A stretch of 56,591 nt of DNA from Bacteroidia bacterium. GTDB lineage: Bacteria; Bacteroidota; Bacteroidia; Bacteroidales; F082. Of this stretch, positions 54 through 27,487 are shown piece after piece (positions within the stretch are counted from its first letter, which is position 1; the number at the start of each line of letters is the position of its first letter). The notes beneath the pieces were generated by a model, which was not told the DNA's origin, ran no database searches, and saw only the letters and a program-made list of their open reading frames with translations. A program made the translations under genes and the position numbers. The DNA is taken from the NCBI GenBank assembly GCA_030537295.1, contig JAUNNU010000002.1, forward strand, positions 1 through 56,591, written 5' to 3'.

Positions 54-500
54 ATGAAAACATCACCATCCGCCATCGCTCTCATCAAGTCCTTTGAAGG
101 CTTCAGCCTGACAGCGTACCGCTGCCCGGCAGGATGCCTCACCATCGGCTACGGTCACACGTCAAACGTCACCGAAGGCATGGCCATCAACGAACAGCAA
201 GCCGAAAAACTCCTGAAGCAGGACATCTGTTTCGCCGAACTCGCGGTTGACATGCTCGGCAAACTCACTCAAAACCAATATGATGCCTTGGTCTCGTTTG
301 TCTTCAACGTCGGCAACCGTGCCTTCTCGTCCTCGCGGCTCCGCCGCTACGTCCTCGCCGATCCGAATGACCCTGCCATCCGTCAGGAGTTCCTCCGCTG
401 GATTTACATCACAGTAAAAGGCAGGAAGCAAATCTCGAAAGGCTTGCAAAACCGCCGCAACGCCGAAGCCAACCTTTATTTCAACACTGAAATCTCCTAA
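54..500 (+). CDS. Phage-type lysozyme (GH24 endolysin)
   Basis: 148 aa. The motif LIKSFEGFSLTAYRCPAGCLTIGYGHT followed by YDALVSFVFNVG and GLQNRRNAE matches the lambda R / P22 gp19-type lysozyme signature. Confidence 0.9.
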   Translation: MKTSPSAIALIKSFEGFSLTAYRCPAGCLTIGYGHTSNVTEGMAINEQQAEKLLKQDICFAELAVDMLGKLTQNQYDALVSFVFNVGNRAFSSSRLRRYVLADPNDPAIRQEFLRWIYITVKGRKQISKGLQNRRNAEANLYFNTEIS

Positions 501-510
501 TATCGAGATA

Positions 511-553
511 CCGAAAAACCAAATACCTCAAACTCCTAAACACCTAACAACCT
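511..553. repeat. CCTNAA-type word repeat
   Basis: ccgaaaaaccaaatacctcaaactcctaaacacctaacaacct, between the lysozyme stop and the next ATG. Confidence 0.6.
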
Positions 554-889
554 ATGTCACTCGACCTTACCCAAATAATCCTCGGCATCACCACGCTTTT
601 GTCCCTCTGCGGCTGGTTCGTCAACGGACGCAAGCACCGCAAGGAGACCGAAGCCATCGATGCCGACAACAGGCAAAAGGAATTTGAACTCGGCAGACAG
701 TACATCGGCGAGTTCAAGGAAAACATTGTCAAACCGTTACAGACAGAAATGAAAGGACTTAAAAATGAAGTCAAGAAACTGCACAAGGCCATCGATCGTG
801 TCAACGATTGCTCTCACCGCGATAATTGCCCTGTCCGCGCAGAGTTGCAGAAGCAGCAAGCCGCTGACGACAACAACAATGAAAAATGA
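554..889 (+). CDS. Lysis-cassette membrane protein: one N-terminal TM plus a charged coiled-coil tail (holin or i-spanin-like)
   Basis: 111 aa. Hydrophobic IILGITTLLSLCGWFV at the N-terminus, then a K/E-rich helical region. It lies directly after the endolysin. Confidence 0.6.
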   Translation: MSLDLTQIILGITTLLSLCGWFVNGRKHRKETEAIDADNRQKEFELGRQYIGEFKENIVKPLQTEMKGLKNEVKKLHKAIDRVNDCSHRDNCPVRAELQKQQAADDNNNEK

Positions 890-1298
890 TAGTGTTTTAG
901 TCGTTGAACGTTGGCGAGACACCACCATCATTCTTCCGCCGGACTCCGCCTGGCTGAAGGCCTGGCTCCAGTGCGACAGCACCGGCAACATCCTCATGCA
1001 GCAGCTGGAGTTGAAATCCTCAAATTTCGTGATGCCGTTGGCACGTCTGGAATCCATTGCGCCATCCGGCGCAATCCTCTCTCTCGATTGCAAGACCGAC
1101 AGCCTTGAAATGGTCATCCGCCTGAAGGAAAGAACCATCCGGCATCTTCAACAATCCCGGACCACACAATACATCGAAGTTGAGCGCAAACTTACATGGT
1201 GGCAGCAGACCCAAATCCATCTCGGCAGGGCGTTGCTCGCTCTGCTCGCCGCCGCAGTGGTTTATGCCATTGTCAAACTAAAACATTACTCACTCTAA
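765..1298 (+). CDS. Lysis-cassette protein with a C-terminal TM; possible unimolecular spanin. An alternative start at 879 would remove the signal-like N-terminus.
   Basis: The ATG at 765 lies out of frame inside the previous ORF and gives IVSTIALTAIIALSAQSC, which is signal / lipobox-like. The C-terminal ALLALLAAAVVYAIV is TM-like. The ATG at 879 overlaps the upstream stop (ATGAAAAATGA). Confidence 0.55.
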   Translation: MKSRNCTRPSIVSTIALTAIIALSAQSCRSSKPLTTTTMKNDSVLVVERWRDTTIILPPDSAWLKAWLQCDSTGNILMQQLELKSSNFVMPLARLESIAPSGAILSLDCKTDSLEMVIRLKERTIRHLQQSRTTQYIEVERKLTWWQQTQIHLGRALLALLAAAVVYAIVKLKHYSL

Positions 1299-1350
1299 TG
1301 ACCTTAATCACATTAATCACCTTAATCTCCTAACACCCTAATTGACACCT
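1299..1350. repeat. CCTTAAT/CCTAA-type word repeat
   Basis: tgaccttaatcacattaatcaccttaatctcctaacaccctaattgacacct, directly after the stop codon. Confidence 0.6.
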
Positions 1351-1407
1351 TTCAGCCCATTCCGACCACTTTTCTCTCCCACCTTGCATCGCGTCAATTA
1401 AATTCAC

Positions 1408-1415
1408 TATCTTTG
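1408..1415 (+). promoter_or_regulatory. Bacteroides-type -7 box TATCTTTG with no annotated ORF downstream
   Basis: cactatctttgcaccg, with ttgcat about 20 nt upstream. Matches the TAnnTTTG consensus of Bacteroidetes primary-sigma promoters. Confidence 0.4.
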
Positions 1416-1807
1416 CACCGCTAAAAAATTTTTTAAGAGCTGCTTCCATAGCTCGTCGGTCAAGGTGGCTATGCTCCGGCACTCAGCCGGAGTTCATCCC
1501 AAAAGGTTTTTTCACACTGCCAAATGTCACAAATGGTTATATCACCCAGCCGCCTTGACCATTTTCAAAATTCATCAATCAGTTTCGTTAAAATCCCAAT
1601 TTTCGAATGCCAGAAAAAGCGAAATCCTCAAATCCTCACATTGAGGAAATGAGGATTTGAGGAAATCACCTGTTTTTTCGCCACATCTTCATCCATTTGC
1701 AGCCTTTTTCATCATTTTGCACCATTTTGCAGCCTCTTTCACACTTGTTTTTCAAAATCCTCAAATCCTCAGAATCCTTAAATCCTCACCCAGCGGAAAT
1801 GAGGATA

Positions 1808-3577
1808 TTATGTTTTTTCATAGCTGTCGTGTGCCGAATGCTTCAGCCGTCCAGTGCTGCAAAACTTACTGATGTACCGCTCAGCCGTCTTCGATGCTAT
1901 CTTCAACCTCTCCGCCACCGCCAAGTAATCCCTCCTCGAAAAACTCTGCGGCAGGTTGTCCAAGAATGTCTGCTTGATGTTCGTCAGTCCGTTGGACAAC
2001 GCCTCACAGTCAGTCAATGGCAGCGAGCCGAACACCTTTGCGGTATGTTCGAGAAGCACCCTGGCCATGATTATTGAAGCCTTGAAATCATCGTCGTCGC
2101 ACTCGATAATGTCAGGGAAACAGCCGTTGTCAACCATCCTCAACGACGACAGTATCATCCCGATCCGAAACGTTATCAGACCGAGCCGACGCACCGACGC
2201 CACAATGTCAAGCCCGAACAGCTTTGAATATTCCACCTGCACCACCTCGAAGAAATCGTTGAACTGTTTTTGCTGCAACTCCGTGTAGGTGAATCTTTTG
2301 GGGTTCGATTTTTCAAGAATCTTGTAAAGCTCATAGAAGTCGTATCCGAGTTGCTGGAAATAGCCGTCCAAAGGCTTGTCCGATTCGGCGAAAACGTCAT
2401 TCCATTCAAGCCGGGTGTTCATCCAGTAGAATATGAATCTGCTGAAGAGTCCGTTCTCGGCGTCTGGAATCAAGGCGAGAACCTGTTTCGGAGTCCCCGA
2501 CAGCAAGGCGGAAAGTTTAGGTTTCGACAGTTCCACAAACTCCCTGTCCTTGCGCCTGGTGTAGGAAATCATTTCATGGTGAAACGCTTTCCGGAAACCG
2601 TCAGAGAAGTTGCCGTAGTCCGACTTGAAAGTGTTGGCCAACGTGTCGCCTTCCGTCTCAAACATCAGCCCAACGCCGCCGTTGTCGTTCAATACTTGAT
2701 AGACAGATGTCGCGCTGCTGTTAGCCGGAATAAGCAGGGTTTTCAATGGCGGCTCCGTCGGCTGCTGGTTGTTTTTCCTGTCAAGCACATATTCATTCAA
2801 AAGGTTTTTGTATTCCTCCATTGAGCTGTGGTACTGCTTTTTCAGATAGTTATGCACTGGCATCACCAGATGTCGGCAGAGCGTCAGCCTGCCTTTCCCC
2901 GACGAAGCCTGTGCCGTGATGAAAAGAAACAGGTTCGGGAACACCTCGCGCCGGGCATAGTTGCCATACACATTCGGCAGACACGCCGACAGAGCCGTTA
3001 TCGCCCCGATGACTAACATGTCTGCATCTTCAGCTGATGTCGCCACTGCCATCACGTTCCGCAGCATCTGCGGCAGCAACCCCTCAACGTCCTGCGAGAA
3101 CGTCGGCGTCAGCTCGGCAAATTCCTCTTTCGATGAAATGTCAGAGTTGTCGAAATCCCCAATCTCGCCATCACCCTCTGAGACCTTTGAAACTCCTTCA
3201 GCTCCTAAATCACCTAAAACTCCTAATTTCCTACCCACCTCAACTCCTGCTTCCTTTGCCCTGTGAAAGAACGTCGCTATCGTCACCCCATGACCTTTTG
3301 CTTTGAGACATCTGTTATATTGAACCTCTGTTTCGTTGAACGAATATTCCCGATAGAACCTGCTGATTCTGTGGTAGTATTGCCGCCCGGCTTCGCCGAG
3401 CGCGTCAGTCAGGGCGAAGCCGAGGTCACGCCATTCGGCGTAACCGCCGGTAATATCCACCGAAGCCGCCTCAATGCGTTTGGTCACATCCTCAATGTCT
3501 TTCTCAACGCCGTCAACCCTTGAAACCTCTGAAACCTCCGATTTCCATTCATCGGGGTTGAATTTTTTCTTTGCCAT
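1808..3577 (-). CDS. Replication protein: PriCT-like N-terminal domain plus DUF3987-type P-loop helicase-like domain
   Basis: The N-terminus GGYAEWRDLGFALTDALGEAGRQYYHRISRFYREYS is PriCT-like. The P-loop is ITAQASSGKGRL. The ATG at 3577 lies 3 nt after the upstream stop; the ORF track extends to a GTG at 3583. Confidence 0.8.
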   Translation of the reverse strand: MAKKKFNPDEWKSEVSEVSRVDGVEKDIEDVTKRIEAASVDITGGYAEWRDLGFALTDALGEAGRQYYHRISRFYREYSFNETEVQYNRCLKAKGHGVTIATFFHRAKEAGVEVGRKLGVLGDLGAEGVSKVSEGDGEIGDFDNSDISSKEEFAELTPTFSQDVEGLLPQMLRNVMAVATSAEDADMLVIGAITALSACLPNVYGNYARREVFPNLFLFITAQASSGKGRLTLCRHLVMPVHNYLKKQYHSSMEEYKNLLNEYVLDRKNNQQPTEPPLKTLLIPANSSATSVYQVLNDNGGVGLMFETEGDTLANTFKSDYGNFSDGFRKAFHHEMISYTRRKDREFVELSKPKLSALLSGTPKQVLALIPDAENGLFSRFIFYWMNTRLEWNDVFAESDKPLDGYFQQLGYDFYELYKILEKSNPKRFTYTELQQKQFNDFFEVVQVEYSKLFGLDIVASVRRLGLITFRIGMILSSLRMVDNGCFPDIIECDDDDFKASIIMARVLLEHTAKVFGSLPLTDCEALSNGLTNIKQTFLDNLPQSFSRRDYLAVAERLKIASKTAERYISKFCSTGRLKHSAHDSYEKT

Positions 3578-3579
3578 AA

Positions 3580-4539
3580 TCACAGATATTTCGGGTTGAT
3601 GAACGCGTCGGGGTCGTATGGCAGGAAGCAGGCCCTCGACACATCCTTGCCAGACGAATCAATCCCGATGCCGTAAGTCTTCCTGATGTAGCATGAAATG
3701 GCGTTGAAATACTCTCCGTGTGGAGTCTGGCCGATGTCATCAATTGCCACCACCCATTTCAAGCCGTCGCCCGACGGACTTCTGAAAAGCATCTGCGTCT
3801 CGAAGTATTCGTCAGCGAGCAGCGAGTTGAACACGTCTTCAAGGTTCGCGATATGGTCGAAGTCAAGGCACATCAGCCCCGAATGCCTGATGATGTTCCT
3901 GTCGCTCCGCGACACGAACACGCCCGAAAACGTGCAGTAGTCGAAGTTGGCAGCCTTGTAAAGCCGCCGCTGCTTCGCATCGGCTATACTTCTCAGCTTC
4001 CACGTCCTTTCCTTGGCGTAATGACCTTTTATGTAAGTGTAAATATCAAGCAAAGTCACTGACCTGTAAGGTGTTATGTTGCTTATCGGCGCACGGTAGA
4101 AAGAGAACATCGGAATTGGTTTCACAGCCGGTACAATCTCACGGCCATCAGAATCCATTTTGCTGTAGAACCCCTTTGAATCAGAGATGTTAAGGTTCAA
4201 ATCCCTGTCGATGGCAAACATCAGCTCGTCGCCGTCCAGACCGTAGTATAGTTTTGCGAACACGAACACGTCGCCGTGCGGTATCGTTCCGCTCGAATCC
4301 TCATGGACTGCATACTCGTCATAGATGGCTTCCGGCATCGCGCTCTTCTCGATCCATATCTTCAGGGTTTTCCTTCCGCCGTTGAAGGGGTTCCGGCAGG
4401 TGCCGCAGTCACGCCCCGAAAGGCTGAAGACAACATTGTCATTCGGGAAACACTTGTGGAGGATGTAGGCGTAGATGTTTATGCCATAGTTCGTCTTCGC
4501 GAGAATCTGGCTTTTTGAGGGTACTGTGGCGTTATTCAT
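3580..4539 (-). CDS. Primase-polymerase-like protein (BT4734 / VirE N-terminal domain type)
   Basis: 319 aa with GLMCLDFDH and LFRSPSGDGLKWVV motifs. The ATGA overlap with the upstream gene indicates coupling. Confidence 0.7.
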   Translation of the reverse strand: MNNATVPSKSQILAKTNYGINIYAYILHKCFPNDNVVFSLSGRDCGTCRNPFNGGRKTLKIWIEKSAMPEAIYDEYAVHEDSSGTIPHGDVFVFAKLYYGLDGDELMFAIDRDLNLNISDSKGFYSKMDSDGREIVPAVKPIPMFSFYRAPISNITPYRSVTLLDIYTYIKGHYAKERTWKLRSIADAKQRRLYKAANFDYCTFSGVFVSRSDRNIIRHSGLMCLDFDHIANLEDVFNSLLADEYFETQMLFRSPSGDGLKWVVAIDDIGQTPHGEYFNAISCYIRKTYGIGIDSSGKDVSRACFLPYDPDAFINPKYL

Positions 4540-4856
4540 TTCTTTCCCTCCTTGTAGTTGCGTTTCAGCATCTTGGCGATGTCCTCTGTGCTGTAAACTA
4601 TTTTCGACCCGAACTTGGTGTAAGGGATTTTGTGGTTGGAACGCATGTTCTGCAAGGCGTTCCTGCTGATGTTGAACGACAGCATCACGTCCTGGTTGTC
4701 AACCCAGCCGCCGATGTCGCTGAACTTGTCTTTCGGCTTCTTCGCCATGTCGTCAAGCACCGTCAATTTCTTCATCAGCTCGGCGACGAAAGGGCATGGG
4801 CATTCAACCATCTTGCCGTTGTCATCCGATGGTTCAAATCTTACTATGTCTTCCAT
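4536..4856 (-). CDS. Excisionase-type helix-turn-helix protein (HTH_17-like)
   Basis: GWVDNQDVMLSFNISRNALQNMRSNHKIPYTKFGSKIVY pattern. The ATG at 4856 overlaps the upstream TGA by 1 nt. Confidence 0.75.
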   Translation of the reverse strand: MEDIVRFEPSDDNGKMVECPCPFVAELMKKLTVLDDMAKKPKDKFSDIGGWVDNQDVMLSFNISRNALQNMRSNHKIPYTKFGSKIVYSTEDIAKMLKRNYKEGKK

Positions 4857-5224
4857 CACTCACTGTCCTCCCCGCCGCCATAGTCTATGTAGCCGATTTT
4901 AGCCTTGATGTGGTTCGATTCCATGAATGTCTGGAGGTCTTTCTTCAGGACATAAATCTTGTTTCCGAACTGAGAGAAAGGAATGTAGCCGGCCTTCCGC
5001 CACGACGACCAGGTCCTTGAACTGATGTGGAGAGTCTTCATCACCTCTCCAGAGTCAATCCATTCATTGCCGGGCTTCTTTTCTTCCTTCTTCTCTTTCC
5101 TTGTGACGAAATCCCTGATGTCGTCAATCTGTTTTTTGAGGCTGTCCCATTCCTGTTCCGGAATCATGAGCACGGTCATTGCGCCCTGTACCACTGCCTG
5201 TCGCTGTCTTTTGCAATCTTCCAT
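4856..5224 (-). CDS. Excisionase-type helix-turn-helix protein (HTH_17-like); start uncertain (5224 or 5179)
   Basis: EWIDSGEVMKTLHISSRTWSSWRKAGYIPFSQFGNKIYV pattern. The ORF-track start at 5269 is a GTG. Confidence 0.7.
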   Translation of the reverse strand: MEDCKRQRQAVVQGAMTVLMIPEQEWDSLKKQIDDIRDFVTRKEKKEEKKPGNEWIDSGEVMKTLHISSRTWSSWRKAGYIPFSQFGNKIYVLKKDLQTFMESNHIKAKIGYIDYGGGEDSE

Positions 5225-5324
5225 AATTGTAATCGAACAGTGAAAATGAACCGCGACATTGCGGCTCACGTCTGTTCAGGCAGCAAAAGTATATAGATTT
5301 TCCGCCACAAAAACAAGCCCAATC

Positions 5325-5408
5325 GGAACATTAATGCACTATTTTACAAGGTGTTTGTGTTCCCAAATCGGAACAGAAACGCCTCTGTTTTTGAAACATT
5401 TTTGTTCC
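5325..5408. promoter_or_regulatory. Nested palindromic operator-like array: GGAACA-N27-TGTTCC-N6-GGAACA-N27-TGTTCC
   Basis: Half-sites read at 5325-5330, 5358-5363, 5370-5375 and 5403-5408. The array is symmetric about position 5366/5367. It lies in the only real intergenic gap of the minus-strand module. Confidence 0.5.
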
Positions 5409-5416
5409 GCCTTGTT

Positions 5417-6487
5417 TCAATGATGTTTGTTGGTGACGCTGTTTCTTTTCGACGACTGCAAAGTGACCTCATTCCCGATGTACGGCTCCGCAAGTTCCAC
5501 CATCTCCTGCACGATGTCCGATGTGTCGTCGGGCTGTCTCACGCCTAAGAAACACAGTGCGCCAATCTTTTTGGCTTCCGTCAAAGCCGACTTCATAAAC
5601 CTCGCATTGTCTCTCGTGGCGCATTCCTCATCCTTGTCGATGAATCCGAACAGCCGCAAGATGTCGTAAGCATCCCTCTTATCCTGGTTTGATAGTTCAA
5701 CGTCATTGGGGAAGACAACACCGTCCATCAGGAAGAACCTGTACATGTCAGGCGTGACCTCGCAATGTGAAGTCACCGTCTCGATGGCGTCCAAAATCTT
5801 CTTGCTGTCATACCGGGGTTCACACACCGAGAGCATAATGATGATGGCTGCGTGAAGCCAGATGTTCTTTGGCGGTGCGCCCTTCGTGGCGGTTTCGTTG
5901 TATTCCGTTTCAAGTCTCTCGATAGTTGATCTGACGCTTTCGATGGTCTTTTCCTGCGATGCTTTTTTCTCATCATGGTTCGGGTATTTCAGATACGCCA
6001 AATCGTAGTTCACAGGGTTGAATCTGATGTCAAAACTTGGGTCAACTTCAGTGGCGTACTTGTGCTTCAGGAAGTTGAACACGCCCGAAAGCAAATCTTC
6101 GCTTGTCAGAGTCAGTTTTCTTTTTTCACTGTAGCTGGCTTTTTTGTTCACGATGTCGATTTCCTGTGAGAGTTTAATCGCTGATTCAATACTGACAAGC
6201 AGCGATTCGGCGATCTGTCTTTTCTGGAAAATCCTGTATCTCGTCACGAATGACAAGTCAGTCTTAATGTCGTGGACGGAAGTCCGTCTCAGCAGGTTGA
6301 GCGCGGTCCAGAGGTATTCCGAATAATCCTCGAAGCGTGTCTTCACGACCATCCTGTCGAATGCCGTCCGCGTCACGTTGTTGAAGTGTATCGTTTCCGG
6401 CTCGCTGATTTTTGTGTAGGCGAGTAGTATCATGGTGTCAAATTTTAGGTTAATATTTTGTTTCAAACAATAGAACATCGGCGGCAT
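5417..6487 (-). CDS. Hypothetical protein, no recognisable motif
   Basis: 356-aa ORF. Its ATG overlaps the integrase stop (TAATG). I could not recognise any family. Confidence 0.6.
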   Translation of the reverse strand: MPPMFYCLKQNINLKFDTMILLAYTKISEPETIHFNNVTRTAFDRMVVKTRFEDYSEYLWTALNLLRRTSVHDIKTDLSFVTRYRIFQKRQIAESLLVSIESAIKLSQEIDIVNKKASYSEKRKLTLTSEDLLSGVFNFLKHKYATEVDPSFDIRFNPVNYDLAYLKYPNHDEKKASQEKTIESVRSTIERLETEYNETATKGAPPKNIWLHAAIIIMLSVCEPRYDSKKILDAIETVTSHCEVTPDMYRFFLMDGVVFPNDVELSNQDKRDAYDILRLFGFIDKDEECATRDNARFMKSALTEAKKIGALCFLGVRQPDDTSDIVQEMVELAEPYIGNEVTLQSSKRNSVTNKHH

Positions 6488-7911
6488 TAGATGCCGTCAA
6501 TGTTCTCGCTTGCGATTCTGAGTCTGATTTCCTTGAACATGGTTTTTGCAAACTCTTCGTTGTTTGTGTCGCGGATAAGGTCGCTGATCTTGTTAATCCA
6601 GAGTTCGATGCCGCCGACTTTCTTCTTGAAAACGTTTTTCAGAGCCTCGTCTGTTGCGTTGGTGTCGAAGTTGCCCATATAGCCTTCGGTTATTTTCAGG
6701 GAGGAGTGGGCGAGCATTTTCTGTATTGCGCTGTTGTCAGTGCCTTCGTCTTTGGCTATCTTGGCGAAAGAGTGTCGGCTGATGTGCATTGAGACCCTTT
6801 TGTCTATTCCGGCGAGTTCCGCAATTTTGTTCAGTTCCTTGTTGATGAGCGCGTTTTTCGCTGAAATGTCTTTGAAAAGCTCTTGTTTGGTTGCCACATT
6901 CATTGAATCGTAGTCCATTTCGGTCACACATTTTGCGTAAGGTTTTGATGGGTCGAGCAGAGGGAAGATGTAATCTGAGCCTTTGAATTTCTCCGGCCTG
7001 TAATAGTCGAGGATTTTCAATGCAGGTTCAACGAGCACCAAATCCCTCACCTTGTGGTTCTTTCCCATCTGATAGTTGAGGCGTTCCCCCACGATGTTGC
7101 GCCACCGCATCTGAATCAGGTCACCTGCTCTAATTCCGGCGCAGTAAAAGCTGAACAGGAAGTAGTTTCGGCAGTGCCAGAGCAGCGAACCCTCTTTGAG
7201 TTCGAGAGCCTTGATGCTTTCAATCTCGTCAGCTGTCAGTTTGTCTTTCACGGTCTTCACGCCTTTGATTTGGAATACCATGAAAGGGTTCTTTTCCGGA
7301 GCCATCTTTCCTTCCTTGATGGCTTTGTTGATGTTTGAGCGGAACTCGTTAAGCACCTCCTGCACGGTATTAGGGTGGATTCGTTTTTCTGGGTGGCGTT
7401 CATTCGGCAGCTTATCGAGATAAGCCTTGAAGTTGGTGATATATTCGTAGTCGATTTCCGAGAAGAGCAGGTCTTTGCCTTTCTGGTATTTTTTGAGTTT
7501 GTTAAGGAAATTGCTGTGTTTTTTCCAGTTTCTTATGCCGCCGCTGTCGAGTATGCTTTGAATCTTCGCCGCCGCAAACTCGATGAACGACTCCGACACG
7601 TTCTTTGCCTTGATAGCGTCCGCGACCTTTCCCGATGAAACGGTTGTCTCTTTGTCAAGTTCAAGATACTTGTTTCGAGTTTCTTCAATCATTCTTGCGA
7701 GTTCGTCGTTCCATTTTTTCGCGTAAGGCAGACTTTTCCTAATCCAGTTGTTGCCAATACATTTTGAATTGAAATCGGTTCGTTTTTCCACTTCGTAAGG
7801 AGTCTTGAATTTCTTCCTTACGCCAGCCACAGTGATGCAAATAAAAATAGTCCACTTTTTGTTTCTTGTCGGCTTTGTGTTCAGTTCGAGTCTGAATGAA
7901 TGTGCTTCCAT
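6487..7911 (-). CDS. Tyrosine recombinase / phage-type integrase
   Basis: 474 aa with a Bacteroidales-type N-terminal arm-binding region. C-terminal catalytic pattern: RAGD..., HISRHSF, LAHSSLKITEGY. Confidence 0.9.
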   Translation of the reverse strand: MEAHSFRLELNTKPTRNKKWTIFICITVAGVRKKFKTPYEVEKRTDFNSKCIGNNWIRKSLPYAKKWNDELARMIEETRNKYLELDKETTVSSGKVADAIKAKNVSESFIEFAAAKIQSILDSGGIRNWKKHSNFLNKLKKYQKGKDLLFSEIDYEYITNFKAYLDKLPNERHPEKRIHPNTVQEVLNEFRSNINKAIKEGKMAPEKNPFMVFQIKGVKTVKDKLTADEIESIKALELKEGSLLWHCRNYFLFSFYCAGIRAGDLIQMRWRNIVGERLNYQMGKNHKVRDLVLVEPALKILDYYRPEKFKGSDYIFPLLDPSKPYAKCVTEMDYDSMNVATKQELFKDISAKNALINKELNKIAELAGIDKRVSMHISRHSFAKIAKDEGTDNSAIQKMLAHSSLKITEGYMGNFDTNATDEALKNVFKKKVGGIELWINKISDLIRDTNNEEFAKTMFKEIRLRIASENIDGI

Positions 7912-22722: not shown

Positions 22723-22757
22723 AGTAAAAGTTGAAAGTAAAAGATAAAAATTGAAGA
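22723..22757. repeat. AAAGT / AAAAG-type word repeat
   Basis: gtaaaagttgaaagtaaaagataaaaattgaag. Confidence 0.5.
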
Positions 22758-22826
22758 ACGCAAAACACAGTGTACATATATCCACCGCGCCTTGCGTCCT
22801 CTTAAGTTTTTTCGTTGATGTTTCCC

Positions 22827-23066
22827 TTAATCTCTCTTTTTGGAGATGGCGTATCCTGCGCCAAGTGCTGTGAGAATTAAAATTCCGCTGCCTAACGGTG
22901 CGTTCTGGTCGCCTGTCAAGCCATGTGAACCAGGGAGAGCCGGTAACGTTTCTCCGTCACGGAGGTTGTCAAAGTCTTGCCAATCGTTGAAAAATCCGTC
23001 TCTCTGAGCCGATGCGCCGAACCCGAGAATAATCGTCAATGCAATCGTAAAAAATATCTTTTTCAT
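22827..23066 (-). CDS. Small exported protein with a C-terminal TM plus basic tail (sorting-signal-like)
   Basis: Signal peptide MKKIFFTIALTIILGFGASAQ, a core of about 35 aa, then APLGSG-ILILTALGAGYAI-SKKRD. It has its own TATCTTTG box at 23195-23202 on the minus strand. Confidence 0.6.
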   Translation of the reverse strand: MKKIFFTIALTIILGFGASAQRDGFFNDWQDFDNLRDGETLPALPGSHGLTGDQNAPLGSGILILTALGAGYAISKKRD

Positions 23067-23297
23067 TTTGTATCTGTATGTGACCCAATACATTATATTA
23101 TTGAGCCTGATTATTAAAATCTTTATTCAAAAAACTCAAAACATCCTTTTGTGGCTATTAAAAACCTCTGAAGTCCTGTTTGAATAACAATTCGCAAAGA
23201 TAGAAAAAAAATTGAAATGGAAACAGAATTTTAAATTTTTTTTTGACAGAGGCATTCGAGTGAATCAGAATGTAATCCTATGTCAATATTTTGTGAA

Positions 23298-24314
23298 TTA
23301 CTCTTCTTCTTTGGCCGCTGTCGAGAGCAGTCCGCATGCGGCGTTGATGTCTTGTCCGCGTGAGGCGCGTATTGTCGCGATGATGCCTTTGTCGTTGAGG
23401 CGGTCGCGGAAACGTGTCATGTCGTCCATCGTCAGGCTTTGCAGTGCGACACCGGGGACGGCGTGGAATCTTATCAGGTTCACGCGGCAGCGCAGCGGGC
23501 CGAGCTGCCTTGCGAGTTCGTTGACGTGTCTCTGGCTGTCGTTAAACCCTTTGAACACAATATATTCGAACGACACGCGGCGTTGACCGCTCCAGTCGTG
23601 CTGCCGTATTGCGTGTATCACTTCGCTTATCGGGAACTTGTTCTCAATTGGCATAATCTTCGCGCGCTCGTCGTGGAACGGGCTGTGCAGACTGACTGCG
23701 AGGTTGCATCTCGACTCCTGCATGAAACGTTTCATGTTCGGGATAAGACCTGATGTCGAGACCGTGATGCGCGTCGGACTCATCGCTAAACCCCATTCCG
23801 ATGTCATGATGTCAAGCACCCGCATGATGTTGTCGTAGTTGTCCATCGGCTCGCCCATGCCCATGAAGACGAAGTTCGACAGTTTCTCGAACTCCGGGAG
23901 GTTGAGTATCTGGTTTATGATGTCGCCGGCTGAAAGATTCCCTTGGAATCCCTGTTTCCCTGTCTGGCAGAACTGGCAGTTCATCTTGCATCCGACCTGG
24001 CACGACACGCACAATGTGGCGCGTTCCTTTTCTGGGATGTAAGCCGCCTCGATGAAACCGTCCTCCGCCGGGAAAAGATATTTCTTCGTGCCGTCTCTCG
24101 ATTCCTGGACGGTGACGAAGTCGCGGTAGCCGGTCGTGTAGTTTTCAGATAAAAGCTGGCGCGTAGCCTTTGAGAGATTCGTCATCTCGTCAAAAGTTTT
24201 CACCCGCTTTAGGTAAAGCCATTCAACGAGTTGTTTCGCTGTGAATTTCGGCAGGTTGTGTTGAGCCACGAGTTCCTGAAGCTCCGCAAATGACATTCCA
24301 AGTAATGATTTCAT
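23298..24314 (-). CDS. rlmN: 23S rRNA / tRNA adenine-C2 methyltransferase RlmN (radical SAM)
   Basis: 338 aa. Has the N-terminal HhH-like region, the CKMNCQFC radical SAM cluster motif and a conserved C-terminal Cys region. Confidence 0.9.
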   Translation of the reverse strand: MKSLLGMSFAELQELVAQHNLPKFTAKQLVEWLYLKRVKTFDEMTNLSKATRQLLSENYTTGYRDFVTVQESRDGTKKYLFPAEDGFIEAAYIPEKERATLCVSCQVGCKMNCQFCQTGKQGFQGNLSAGDIINQILNLPEFEKLSNFVFMGMGEPMDNYDNIMRVLDIMTSEWGLAMSPTRITVSTSGLIPNMKRFMQESRCNLAVSLHSPFHDERAKIMPIENKFPISEVIHAIRQHDWSGQRRVSFEYIVFKGFNDSQRHVNELARQLGPLRCRVNLIRFHAVPGVALQSLTMDDMTRFRDRLNDKGIIATIRASRGQDINAACGLLSTAAKEEE

Positions 24315-24336
24315 GTTGTATTTTTTTTCTGAAAAA

Positions 24337-24783
24337 TTAAACTGTCCTTAATATATGTTTCTTGAATTTTCTGATGAACCACTTTTTAAATCTTACTGCC
24401 GGGACGAATAAAGTTGTCATTCTCCAACAGAATGAATCACAATCCATTACGGTTCCGTTTATCCTTTTGAAAGAAGACAGAACCGCAACAATGTCTTTTC
24501 TGTTGAATCTTTCAAAAGTATATAGGTTGTCGCCTCGTGCCACAACGGCCTCGCCTTCGGTGTGATGGAAGCGGTGCAGGATGTGCTTGCCGTTGTAACG
24601 GAAAAGCAGCACCGCATTTCTGCTCAAGACGTTTGTGTTTCCGACAGGTGAAAGCGTGACGAGACATCCGTCTTCAAGTGTCGGGGTCATGCTCGTCCCG
24701 CGCAGCGGAATGGTGATGCTTTCGCCTCGTGCCACGCATTCTTCCACTTCCTCGAATACGATTTCGTTTGGTACCGTTATCAT
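24337..24783 (-). CDS. S24 / S26-family Ser-Lys peptidase-like protein
   Basis: 148 aa. Has GTSMTPTL (nucleophile box), GKHILHR (Lys box) and ARGDN. The ATGA overlap links it to the upstream gene. Confidence 0.7.
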   Translation of the reverse strand: MITVPNEIVFEEVEECVARGESITIPLRGTSMTPTLEDGCLVTLSPVGNTNVLSRNAVLLFRYNGKHILHRFHHTEGEAVVARGDNLYTFERFNRKDIVAVLSSFKRINGTVMDCDSFCWRMTTLFVPAVRFKKWFIRKFKKHILRTV

Positions 24784-25670
24784 TTCCCGAAGATTGTTTT
24801 TCTCGACAGCTCGGCGGCCTCCACATCAGGCAGGCAGTCGAGTTTGTAAACCGGCACCTGCATCAGGATCTCCGACACGCTGTCGAGCATCTTCTCGTTC
24901 AGCTCATCGACTTTCGCGAACGCCGGCGGGAACGACGGGAACAGTGCCGTTATCGATTCAAGCGGGTTGAGGCGTCTCATCTTGTTTTCCGGTGCCTGCG
25001 CCAGGCGCACCACGGCCTTCAGCGGATACGATTGCGTTTTGTAACACGGTGTCTTGCCGCTCCACGGCGAGCCAAAAACCACAGGACTTCCGCTTTCGGT
25101 GGAGACGATTGGGCTGTCGTCGTTCAGAAGCGACGCATCCTCGAAGTTGCTGTACCACAGTCTCGTATGCGTACTCTTTCCGGTTCCCGACTCGCCGAGG
25201 AACATGACGGCTTGTCCTTCATATACCAGACAAGAGGTGTGGACGCCGTACGCCCCGACTTCCGACCCGAACAGGTTGAAAGCGAACCACAACGCAAACC
25301 TCATCGCGTCAACGTCATCGAGGGAAGAACCGAAAACCTGCCCGTCGCGGTATTCCATGCTGAAACGGGCACCTTTCTCATTGCTTTCCATTTCGAAGAC
25401 GGGAATGTCACCCTTGAAACCGAACCTGCTCGTAATGCTGTCTGATTCAATCTCATACACTTTTCTTAACGGTGTCAACGAAAGCATTCTCTCGTCAAGA
25501 TTGACGATCCAAGGCTCGATGTCGTCGTGCCGGTCGGTGCTGTTTTTGTCGATTTCAAAGATATCGAAGCCGGCAATGTTGCGGACGCACTGCACTGAGC
25601 TGCCGCCGTTGACTACCATTACGTGGCCGCCGATGAAATATCTGACAGTGTTTTTAGATGAGCAAGCCAT
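24780..25670 (-). CDS. HPr-kinase-C-terminal-like P-loop protein (HprK-related)
   Basis: VHTSCLVYEGQAVMFLGESGTGKSTHTRLW...LLNDDSPIV matches the HprK C-domain pattern. The ATG at 25670 overlaps the PqqD-like ORF by 17 nt. The ORF-track start at 25679 is TTG. Confidence 0.7.
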   Translation of the reverse strand: MACSSKNTVRYFIGGHVMVVNGGSSVQCVRNIAGFDIFEIDKNSTDRHDDIEPWIVNLDERMLSLTPLRKVYEIESDSITSRFGFKGDIPVFEMESNEKGARFSMEYRDGQVFGSSLDDVDAMRFALWFAFNLFGSEVGAYGVHTSCLVYEGQAVMFLGESGTGKSTHTRLWYSNFEDASLLNDDSPIVSTESGSPVVFGSPWSGKTPCYKTQSYPLKAVVRLAQAPENKMRRLNPLESITALFPSFPPAFAKVDELNEKMLDSVSEILMQVPVYKLDCLPDVEAAELSRKTIFGK

Positions 25671-25914
25671 TGTTCTCAAGGTTTTTTACCCAAGCAGCGG
25701 CGTCGTTCTTTGCTGTCGCCTCATCGACATCATATTTTTCGAGGAGGAGATTTGCCGCATCTTCAATCGTGAAGTCTTTGTTTAACAATGAGTTCCACAA
25801 ATAAAGAGCGGTCTCGTTGAACGCCACGACTCGTGTCATCATATTTTTGTCGTGAAGCATGGCGATCTGTTCGCCAGCCACATTGCGGATTTTTATTTTT
25901 TCGTTTATTTTCAT
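25654..25914 (-). CDS. PqqD-family protein (RiPP recognition element-like)
   Basis: 86 aa. Has ...VVAFNETALYLWNSL....FTIEDAANLLLEKYDVDEATAKNDAAAWVKNLENNGLL, the typical PqqD / RRE layout. Confidence 0.7.
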   Translation of the reverse strand: MKINEKIKIRNVAGEQIAMLHDKNMMTRVVAFNETALYLWNSLLNKDFTIEDAANLLLEKYDVDEATAKNDAAAWVKNLENNGLLI

Positions 25915-25937
25915 TTTGAAAAAAAAGTTTTAAGCCG

Positions 25938-25945
25938 CAAAAATA
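25938..25945 (-). promoter_or_regulatory. -7 box TATTTTTG (minus strand) upstream of the PqqD-like operon
   Basis: The plus strand reads caaaaata, about 24 nt upstream of the ATG at 25914. Confidence 0.45.
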
Positions 25946-25975
25946 CGAAATAATATTGAATTTCGAGTATTTAAA

Positions 25976-27487
25976 TCAAAGATTCTTTTCCAATATGATT
26001 CTGAACGTCGTGCCTTGGCCGATGGTGCTGTTTTTCACGAAGATTTTTCCTTTGTGATAGTCTTCGACGATACGTTTCGCGAGCGAGAGTCCGAGTCCCC
26101 AGCCTCGTTTCTTGGATGTGTAACCGGGCTTGAAGACTTGCGTGAACATCGAGCGCGGCATTCCTTTTCCGGTGTCGGTGACATCGATGAAGATGTTGTT
26201 GTCGTCTTCGGTCATCTCTACGGTGAGGCTGCCGTGGTCGGTCATGGCGTCGATGGCGTTTTTCGTGAGGTTTTCTAAAACCCATCCGAACAGGGCGGCG
26301 TTGAGAGGCACGACGATCTCGCGTGCAGGGAGTTGAATCTGGAAATCGAATTTCGATGAGAACCGTTTTTGCAGATAACGCATGGTCTTGCGTGTGACAT
26401 CGACCACGTCGCTCGGCTCCAAGGTCGGGATGGAACCTATCTTGGAGAAACGTTCCGTTATCGTCTTCAGCCGCTCGATGTCGCTTTCCATGTCAGACGT
26501 CCCGATGAACGGTTTCTCTTCGAGTTTCAGAAGCTCGACCCAGCCCATGAGCGAGCTGAGCGGCGTCCCGATCTGATGCGCCGTCTCCTTCGCCATTCCA
26601 GCCCACACCTGATTCTGCTCCGAACGCCGGGCGTAACTGAAGAGCAGATATGCTATCACAAAGAAGAAAGCGAAGATAAGTATCTGAATCACAGGGAAAT
26701 AACGCATCTGCTGGAGGAGGTCGGAACCTCTGTAGTAAATGTAAACTTTGTTTCCGTCGAGGTAGTTCACCTTGATGGGGAAATGGTCTTCCTGCATTAT
26801 TTCGAGCTGTCTGGCGACGTATTCCTTGTCCTGCATCTTCACGCTGTCGAGTTTCCCGTAAGCCAGGACTTTGTTGTCAACGCTGTCAACGATGATGACC
26901 GGCGCGCCCACGGCGTTGTCGGTGACATCGGCGACGAAGACCTGGAACATCCCGTCGAGGACGCTTTTCAGCTCGGTGTAGATGAGCGACTCGTTGTAGA
27001 AAAGCCACGACGTCTTGCCGTAAAGGTCGATTTTTATAGGCGAATAGACGTTGAACTCCGCGACCATCTCGTCGTCGAAGTATTTCTTGCCCCTGAACTT
27101 CTCCGGGAGATTGATGGAGTTGCGTATCTTCCCGTTGTCGTCGGCGATGACGACCGGAATACTGATGTTGCTCCTGATGATTTCAAGGTAAATGGATGTG
27201 TTTTCGTCAGGACCCGCCTCAAGGAAACTCTTGTACGCAAGTGCAAGAAGCTCAACGCGTTTCTGCTCCTGGTCGCTAACCTCGTCGAAAAACGTCTCCG
27301 TATATTTCATCAGCTCCACGTGACTCTGCACCGCCTCCGCCCACATCTCAATCTGCTTGGTCTCCTGCGCCGCAAACCTTTTTACCAAAATATTTGTGTA
27401 ATATATTGAAGCACAAACGATTATCAACGCCAAGACAGCCAATGCTATCTTCCATCTTTTCTTATGTGTATAAAAATTTGCTTTCAT
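25976..27487 (-). CDS. Sensor histidine kinase (two TM, HisKA plus HATPase_c)
   Basis: 503 aa. Has the H-box ETAHQIGTPLSSL, the N-box LENLTKNAIDA and G-boxes DTGKGM / GWGLGL. No response regulator is in the window. Confidence 0.85.
   Translation of the reverse strand: MKANFYTHKKRWKIALAVLALIIVCASIYYTNILVKRFAAQETKQIEMWAEAVQSHVELMKYTETFFDEVSDQEQKRVELLALAYKSFLEAGPDENTSIYLEIIRSNISIPVVIADDNGKIRNSINLPEKFRGKKYFDDEMVAEFNVYSPIKIDLYGKTSWLFYNESLIYTELKSVLDGMFQVFVADVTDNAVGAPVIIVDSVDNKVLAYGKLDSVKMQDKEYVARQLEIMQEDHFPIKVNYLDGNKVYIYYRGSDLLQQMRYFPVIQILIFAFFFVIAYLLFSYARRSEQNQVWAGMAKETAHQIGTPLSSLMGWVELLKLEEKPFIGTSDMESDIERLKTITERFSKIGSIPTLEPSDVVDVTRKTMRYLQKRFSSKFDFQIQLPAREIVVPLNAALFGWVLENLTKNAIDAMTDHGSLTVEMTEDDNNIFIDVTDTGKGMPRSMFTQVFKPGYTSKKRGWGLGLSLAKRIVEDYHKGKIFVKNSTIGQGTTFRIILEKNL

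Follow-up and report, generated by a model that had tools for sequence, protein, structure and literature searches.

Gene trio encoding PqqD-type, ScmC-like and Sec11-like proteins as the putative core of a RiPP-like peptide maturation and export cassette in Bacteroidales

Three tightly packed genes on the minus strand of a 56,591-nt stretch of the contig JAUNNU010000002.1 (positions 1 to 56,591; assembly GCA_030537295.1, Bacteroidia bacterium of the Bacteroidales lineage F082; hereafter the window) were analysed after an earlier note, made from the sequence alone, had read them as a minimal peptide- or protein-modification module. Gene A (25654..25914) encodes an 86-aa protein assigned by Pfam to the PqqD family, a recognition element (RRE) of peptides made by the ribosome and modified after translation (RiPPs) with the form of a peptide-binding winged helix. 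Gene B (24780..25670) encodes a 296-aa P-loop protein placed in the ScmC family (PF27840) by the labels of its homologues, for which motifs, AlphaFold and Foldseek point to a kinase fold of the phosphoenolpyruvate carboxykinase (PEPCK)/HprK type, and gene C (24337..24783) a 148-aa peptidase of the S24/S26 clan, placed by its Peptidase_S24 match and a family alignment in the Sec11/SipW (Ser-His-Asp) type. Judged from the gene content of related loci, the trio is a partial cluster of a larger Bacteroidales cassette made of PqqD, NTP_transf_5, ABC exporter, kinase-like and peptidase genes, and we consider it fairly probable (roughly 0.6) that the three proteins are the enzymatic core of a RiPP-like peptide maturation and export system occurring across Bacteroidales.

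The coordinates of the three minus-strand open reading frames (ORFs) confirmed the overlaps reported before, 17 nt between A and B and 4 nt (ATGA) between B and C, and the trio is one translationally coupled operon. The length of protein B is 296 aa when counted from the ATG and 299 aa if the alternative TTG at 25679 is used. In the closest relative, the 90% identical contig L001 from a horse-faeces Bacteroidales metagenome-assembled genome (MAG), the gene order of the trio was kept; a codon comparison with this contig showed synonymous changes outnumbering non-synonymous ones in every gene of the trio (A 21/15, B 69/37, C 33/29).

The spread of the system was followed in species-representative genomes (one genome per species), from which 599 stretches were examined and 80 loci kept. 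At least 533 relatives of protein B were found among the 599 stretches, and the family as a whole comprised more than 8000 clusters at 90% identity; at 50% identity there were 7575 representatives with E <= 1e-3 and 470 with E <= 1e-30. All kept loci were labelled as Bacteroidota, with the exception of a contig filed under Faecalibacterium (L019), and the labels included Bacteroides, Phocaeicola, Mediterranea, Alistipes, Odoribacter, Muribaculaceae, Prevotellaceae, Dysgonamonadaceae, Marinilabiliales and one Flavobacteriaceae MAG. The kinase-like gene was directly followed by the peptidase gene in about 73 of the 80 loci and a PqqD gene was located within 6 kb in 41 of them. Recurrent cassette neighbours were an ABC exporter that unites membrane and ATPase domains in one protein and an 'uncharacterised nucleotidyltransferase' of the NTP_transf_5 family (PF14907, 1.4e-39), to which the Bacteroides loci added a Wzz/GNVR-like protein. 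With KIN, S24 and NTP5 standing for the kinase-like, peptidase and NTP_transf_5 genes, the architectures were ABC-KIN-S24 (28 loci), PqqD-KIN-S24, which is that of the window (17), PqqD-ABC-KIN-S24 (8) and PqqD-NTP5-ABC-KIN-S24 (5), and permutations also occurred. The closest relative on a long contig (55% identity) had the order PqqD-ScmC-peptidase-NTP_transf_5, and in Alistipes the ABC-KIN-S24 set was present with no PqqD gene nearby. The idea of a minimal module was abandoned, since in other loci the trio is a piece of the larger conserved cassette. The PADLOC models of known anti-phage defence gave no match for A, B, C or NTP5, and only generic matches for the ABC protein.

A candidate substrate was obtained by clustering all small ORFs in the 80 related loci. 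The resulting peptide family (34–54 aa) has a short N-terminus, a conserved leader with the plan Y-x-x-P-x-V-E-V-(L/I/V)-E-V-x-V-E-x-G-F-A-x-(S/T) and a variable tail. The tails (median 13 residues) are acidic and Gly/Asp/Pro-rich, contain almost no Cys or basic residues and often end with Phe, Leu or Trp; 111 of 119 tails were unique. No Pfam or NCBIfam model matched the family, and its 2638 database members, with several paralogues per genome, are all annotated as 'hypothetical'. In a comparison of 41 distinct core sequences the codon differences were distributed over positions 1:2:3 as 3976 : 3129 : 7557 and 49% of the differing codons were synonymous, and this preference for third positions and synonymous changes indicates that the peptide ORF is coding. 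Precursors of RiPPs or pheromones are expected to combine a conserved leader and a hypervariable tail in this way, and from their sequences and genomic positions the YxxP-leader peptides are probable precursors, that is, substrates, of the cassette. All other small-ORF clusters in the 80 loci were rejected as shadows of large genes, and small called genes near L164 gave low-complexity or implausible translations. A few peptide copies (L094, 1247-1408, and some of the loci L099-L124) combine an identical leader with a different, basic tail, for example GDVPKIHFR and not GDVPGGGEDPF, and may have arisen by a frameshift or an indel where the tail is encoded.

An independent test started from the peptide, which was the only seed of a metagenome scan: it gave 80 loci, 61 of which had cassette genes within 10 kb, the rest being mostly short contigs, and the kinase-like genes co-located with peptides formed 13 lineages at 70% identity. 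Locus L076, with the accession JAITQA010000132, is a compact operon of peptide (183-332), kinase-like (345-1205), peptidase (1202-1651), PqqD (1654-1923), NTP5 and ABC genes; in L053 the peptide gene (2602-2721) is directly upstream of PqqD-NTP5-ABC-KIN-peptidase, and in L078 it lies just downstream of the peptidase gene. In the commoner arrangement the peptide gene is upstream and is followed after 20–190 nt by the gene of a lipoprotein of 700–1090 aa and then by the cassette. Such a lipoprotein, with acidic residues following the lipobox Cys, came after the peptide gene in 86 of 96 cases, and 78 of 82 lipoproteins form a single, very divergent family that falls into 28 clusters at 85% identity (for example L006 563-3007 and 9571-11934, L104 10262-13528, L131 10127-12958, L161 10197-13103). 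Searches with these large lipoproteins against Pfam, NCBIfam and the Protein Data Bank (PDB) gave no match, bar one BspA-type leucine-rich repeat region. In human-gut Bacteroides (L082-L087, L161-L163) the genes of peptide, lipoprotein, Wzz-like, ABC and kinase-like proteins make up modules, of which two or more, in tandem or divergent, share one PqqD gene, and in L163 a tyrosine-integrase gene lies between the modules, which may hint at recombinational switching.

PqqD domains are peptide-leader binders, and the YxxP motif with the following beta-strand is what the lasso B1 (PqqD) proteins bind. Protein A matched the Pfam PqqD model (PF05402) with 52.3 bits (cutoff 23.4, E 7.3e-14) over residues 19–85 of its 86, corresponding to profile positions 4–67 of 67; the profile search thus agreed with its first reading as a PqqD/RRE-like protein, and by this sequence criterion it is a PqqD-type recognition element. 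Its nearest NCBIfam models were lasso-peptide PqqD chaperones, with scores under their cutoffs, and the best relative by sequence among solved structures was the lasso RRE TfuB1 (6jx3, E 0.014).

In an alignment of 21 diverse homologues, protein B had invariant H144, G159-ESGTGKST-H168, L181-LNDDSP-187, GSPWSGKT and a C-terminal CLP motif. Its AlphaFold model was confident (predicted local distance difference test, pLDDT, 91.6; predicted template modelling score, pTM, 0.89), and the best Foldseek match to this model was ATP-dependent PEPCK (E 5e-8), followed by HprK/P (1knx, 1kkl, 1jb1; E 6e-5 to 2e-3); a sequence search against the PDB gave no match. According to the model, protein B is a P-loop enzyme of the PEPCK/HprK superfamily with the HprK-like order His ... 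Walker A ... DD. The earlier note had assigned it the pattern of the HPr kinase C-terminal domain: the fold and the invariant GESGTGKST and LLNDDSP motifs sustain this reading, though PEPCK matched better, but the protein stands outside the Pfam HPr-kinase family, since Hpr_kinase_C was not among the matches listed at E <= 1, of which the best was ABC_tran, covering the P-loop part only, and nothing but P-loop matches was significant. With HprK/P it shares the P-loop kinase fold and the His ... GxSGxGKS ... LxxDD order, and differs from it by another N-terminal domain and by a context devoid of HPr and the phosphotransferase system. The Pfam set searched with protein B did not include PF27840, and its homologues carry precomputed PF27840:ScmC labels, some of them marked weak or faint. 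ScmC of the SynChlorMet (SCM) cassette is an HprK-related protein occurring with a PqqD-like protein in peptide maturation. The match of protein B to the corresponding model TIGR04249 was weak (18 bits), far under the cutoff of 125, and, unlike in SynChlorMet, no radical SAM/SPASM maturases accompany the trio: none was present in the labelled neighbourhoods, and the sole radical SAM protein near the trio is RlmN.

Protein C was just over the Pfam Peptidase_S24 cutoff (23.9 against 23.3 bits). A word-indexed search gave just 8 homologues, and a family alignment of 76 members was built from the related loci. In this alignment G29, S31, M32, P34, H70, R71, G84 and D85 were invariant and N86 and E91 nearly so, K66 was variable (R 22, H 17, K 10), and the position aligned to the Lys of signal peptidase I (SPase I) was an invariant His. 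As K66 is not conserved while S31, H70 and D85 are, the enzyme is not of the Ser-Lys type and differs in this from the LexA/UmuD-type S24 peptidases. Of the former assignment to Ser-Lys peptidases of the S24/S26 clan, the clan and the three strings on which it was based (GTSMTPTL, GKHILHR and ARGDN) therefore held and the catalytic pair did not. The family profile retrieved human SEC11C (7e-6) and SEC11A ahead of bacterial SPase I and paired the motifs S-M-x-P, H-R and G-D-x-N with the Ser, His and Asp motifs of these two proteins, which are signal peptidases of the endoplasmic reticulum (ER) type (Sec11A/C, SipW, archaeal SPase I; MEROPS S26B); the conserved [A/G]-x-[S/T] of the candidate precursors would suit a small-x-small cleavage site.

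In contrast to the S26B enzymes, protein C has only 148 aa, no hydrophobic N-terminal segment that could serve as a membrane anchor, and scores under the signal-peptidase family cutoffs (best NCBIfam model, the archaeal signal peptidase I sigpep_I_arch, 17.5 against 51.85; SipW 15.2 against 190). Its C-terminus is a basic, amphipathic, Trp/Arg-rich helix, replaced in some relatives by a VanZ fusion, and by its context it would be cytoplasmic. The occurrence of kinase-like and peptidase domains fused in a single polypeptide in some organisms (P0018, 448 aa; P0251, 430 aa) places it on the same side of the membrane as protein B. Its sequence features make protein C an anchorless Sec11-like peptidase of the Ser-His-Asp type. 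In a clade of rumen Bacteroidales the peptidase carries VanZ as an additional membrane domain at its C-terminus (about 250–277 aa in total), and the next gene, in at least 10 loci, encodes a family-2 glycosyltransferase (GT2) that is very conserved (for this arrangement see L002 1947-2780, L165 10965-11717 and 11747-12472); the adjacency may be functional or simple synteny, as this GT2 is extremely conserved.

The cassette can be compared with the clusters of the lasso peptides paeninodin (pade) and pseudomycoidin (psm). In the latter, an HprK-type kinase phosphorylates the C-terminal Ser of the precursor, PsmN, an 'uncharacterised NTP transferase', is required for the addition of hexose onto the phosphate, B1 is a PqqD protein and D an ABC exporter (PMC6993621). 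Common to these clusters and the cassette are a small PqqD protein (B1), a kinase of HprK fold, a protein of the NTP_transf_5 type (PsmN), an ABC exporter and a leader of the YxxP type. Unlike pade and psm, the Bacteroidales cassette lacks the macrolactam synthetase (C) and the transglutaminase-like B2 and has a Sec11-like peptidase; its kinase-like protein is labelled as Pfam ScmC and not as Hpr_kinase_C, its candidate precursors are not Ser-ended, its hosts are Bacteroidota, and a large surface lipoprotein and a Wzz-like protein often go with it. The release of a short peptide by a cytoplasmic leader peptidase together with an ABC exporter would resemble the peptidase-containing ABC transporters that export bacteriocins, but here the peptidase is a separate S26-type protein and not a fused C39 domain, and the leader is not of the double-glycine kind. 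Literature searches turned up no account of either the cassette or the peptides: its parts are of known kinds, their combination is undescribed, and its gene content suggests an RRE-dependent peptide maturation pathway.

For the chemistry, acceptor residue, cleavage site, export and product we infer the following scheme. The PqqD protein would bind the YxxP/beta-strand leader in the manner of the lasso B1 proteins, and protein B would phosphorylate a hydroxyl group on the peptide. A candidate acceptor is the invariant Ser/Thr of GFAxS/T, the sole hydroxyl common to all peptides besides the Tyr of YxxP. Where encoded, NTP_transf_5 may decorate the phosphate with a sugar, like PsmN. Protein C would then cut the leader at a small-x-small site, either [A/G]-x-[S/T] or G-F-A, on the membrane's cytoplasmic side, and the ABC exporter would secrete the short acidic tail peptide. 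Only the trio is clustered here, and the precursor, the exporter and any further tailoring enzyme of the host must lie outside the 56.6-kb window. More tentatively, with chances slightly short of even, the cassettes could represent a new RiPP-like class, common among gut Bacteroidales and present in abundant human-gut Bacteroides, with short, linear, acidic and hypervariable peptides that are RRE-guided, modified by an ScmC-family kinase, optionally phospho-glycosylated, cleaved by a cytoplasmic Sec11-like enzyme, secreted by dedicated ABC exporters and paired with fast-evolving surface lipoproteins. In this reading the peptide-lipoprotein pairing would point to a strain-specific signalling or antagonism system.

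Several observations weigh against the peptide maturation reading. The absence of Ser, Thr and Tyr from 27% of the tails makes the phospho-acceptor uncertain, the kinase activity of protein B is predicted from fold and motifs only, with neither Hpr_kinase_C nor any lasso-kinase model matching the protein, and the structure model of protein C, built on the 8-sequence alignment, was unusable (pLDDT 49). A small set of gut species accounts for many loci of the peptide-seeded scan, and the model does not explain the role of the lipoprotein which usually follows the peptide. Most directly, none of the 17 loci with the arrangement of the window (PqqD-KIN-S24) had a peptide within 6 kb, and this clade might use a different substrate. 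In the window itself a hidden Markov model search and two regular-expression scans gave nothing credible as a YxxP-type peptide, and phmmer detected no ABC, NTP_transf_5, Wzz or GT2 gene and no member of the lipoprotein family; since the window is without these parts, the link of its trio to the peptides rests on homology at 40–55% identity to loci that contain them. As in the earlier note, the ORFs and scans of the window showed neither a precursor nor a lasso cyclase or SPASM maturase beside the trio.

These gaps leave room for other explanations. In the clade of the window the trio might act on a substrate outside the YxxP peptide family, for example as a regulatory module in which a cytoplasmic protein is phosphorylated and then cleaved, independently of these peptides and of the exporter found in Bacteroides. 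This we consider unlikely. It would account for a window devoid of other cassette parts and for PqqD-KIN-S24 loci in which neither a peptide nor an ABC exporter was present within 6 kb, and it is in line with the rumen branch, where the peptidase is VanZ-fused and GT2 comes after it in place of NTP_transf_5. On the other hand, the catalytic and binding signatures of the window trio are the same as in the full cassettes, PqqD domains have peptide leaders as their known ligands, the closest long-contig relative retains NTP_transf_5 directly after the peptidase, and as the cassette genes are dispersed in many genomes, for example in Alistipes, where ABC-KIN-S24 has no PqqD gene nearby, their absence over 56 kb is a weak argument. 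An equally improbable alternative is that the system mainly exports or builds the large surface lipoproteins; the kinase-like protein would then regulate the ABC exporter as an NTPase, and the peptide would serve as cofactor or chaperone and not be the product. The frequent succession of peptide and lipoprotein genes (86/96), the membership of most lipoproteins in one divergent family (78/82), the usual adjacency of the ABC and kinase-like genes, and the Wzz-like, ABC and kinase-like set which each peptide-lipoprotein pair has of its own in Bacteroides would all fit it. Yet the complete peptide operons L076, L053 and L078 contain no lipoprotein gene, no lipoprotein of this kind goes with the trio in the window and its clade, and the lipoproteins carry Sec/signal peptidase II signals, for which a cytoplasmic RRE, kinase and leader peptidase are not needed.

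Two further alternatives are very improbable. A decayed or split lasso-peptide cluster, with the cyclase and the B2 protease encoded elsewhere, has in its favour the affinity of protein A to lasso B1 proteins and the set of PqqD, HprK-fold kinase, NTP_transf_5 and ABC genes, which are accessory genes of the paeninodin and pseudomycoidin clusters. But neither Asn-synthase-like nor transglutaminase-like genes were present in the Pfam-labelled neighbourhoods or in the ORF list of the window, every gene is accounted for in the tight operons L076 and L053, which have no cyclase or B2, the S26-type peptidase stands in for the lasso leader protease, and the peptide tails do not show the pattern of a ring from an N-terminal Gly/Ala to Asp/Glu-8/9 in a conserved register. 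The other is the substrate named in the earlier note, a small exported protein at 22827-23066 (minus strand; the ORF extends over 22827-23093 and encodes 88 aa), which is on the same strand as the trio, 1.2 kb downstream of it, and includes a stretch rich in Ser and Gly. The protein begins with a Sec signal peptide, ends in a tail resembling a sorting signal (PLGSG, a hydrophobic stretch and KKRD, with weak PID-CTERM and LPXTG matches at E 0.05–0.07), contains no YxxP motif, and had no homologue in the 80 related loci. Moreover, it lies in a 566-nt segment (22732-23297) in place of which L001 has 104 nt. As L001 keeps the trio without this segment, and in view of the missing homologues and the Sec signal, the exported protein is very unlikely to be the substrate. 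The broader proposal, an RRE acting with a kinase-like protein and a leader peptidase on a substrate encoded elsewhere, fits the comparative linkage and the domain fusions and was retained, with the named substrate removed from it.

The trio is located between the genes of a sensor histidine kinase (25976-27487) and of RlmN (23298-24314), at distances of 61 nt (25915-25975) and 22 nt (24315-24336), respectively, which leaves no room for a gene in its flanks, and both this tightness and the identity of the radical SAM neighbour as a canonical RlmN (TIGR00048, 346.8 bits, cutoff 290) confirmed what had been read from the sequence before. With amino-acid identities to L001 of 80–87%, against 96% for the flanking RlmN and histidine kinase, the trio evolves faster than its housekeeping neighbours. 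The upstream histidine kinase was considered as a member of the system and rejected, since it adjoins the trio solely in the near-identical L001. The TAnnTTTG box attributed to the operon, a promoter-like element of the Bacteroidetes -7 type, is indeed present on the minus strand (TATTTTTG, 25938..25945), 24 nt upstream of the ATG of gene A, but as a single copy it is weak evidence, because the motif is common in the window: a pattern scan gave 54 copies against 30.8 +/- 5.6 expected from shuffles. This enrichment fits a general promoter -7 element of the organism. An integrated mobile element is suggested, as judged from N-terminal sequences only, at the window's left end (54-7911) by a lysozyme-like ORF (54-500), a Bacteroides-type integrase-like ORF (6487-7911) and several small ORFs between them.

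The scale of the system is considerable, with more than 8000 kinase-like clusters at 90% identity and more than 2600 database members of the candidate precursor family, carried among others by dominant Bacteroidales of the human gut and of the livestock gut. Six-gene operons such as L076 are compact enough for direct heterologous testing. If the maturation reading is correct, the cassettes would represent a large and so far untapped source of modified peptides secreted by gut commensals and provide the first function for the ScmC family, and the signal-peptidase fold would be seen at work as a leader peptidase in the cytoplasm. Finally, hypervariable peptides would be tied to surface lipoproteins that are hypervariable as well, as is typical where strains recognise each other or compete.

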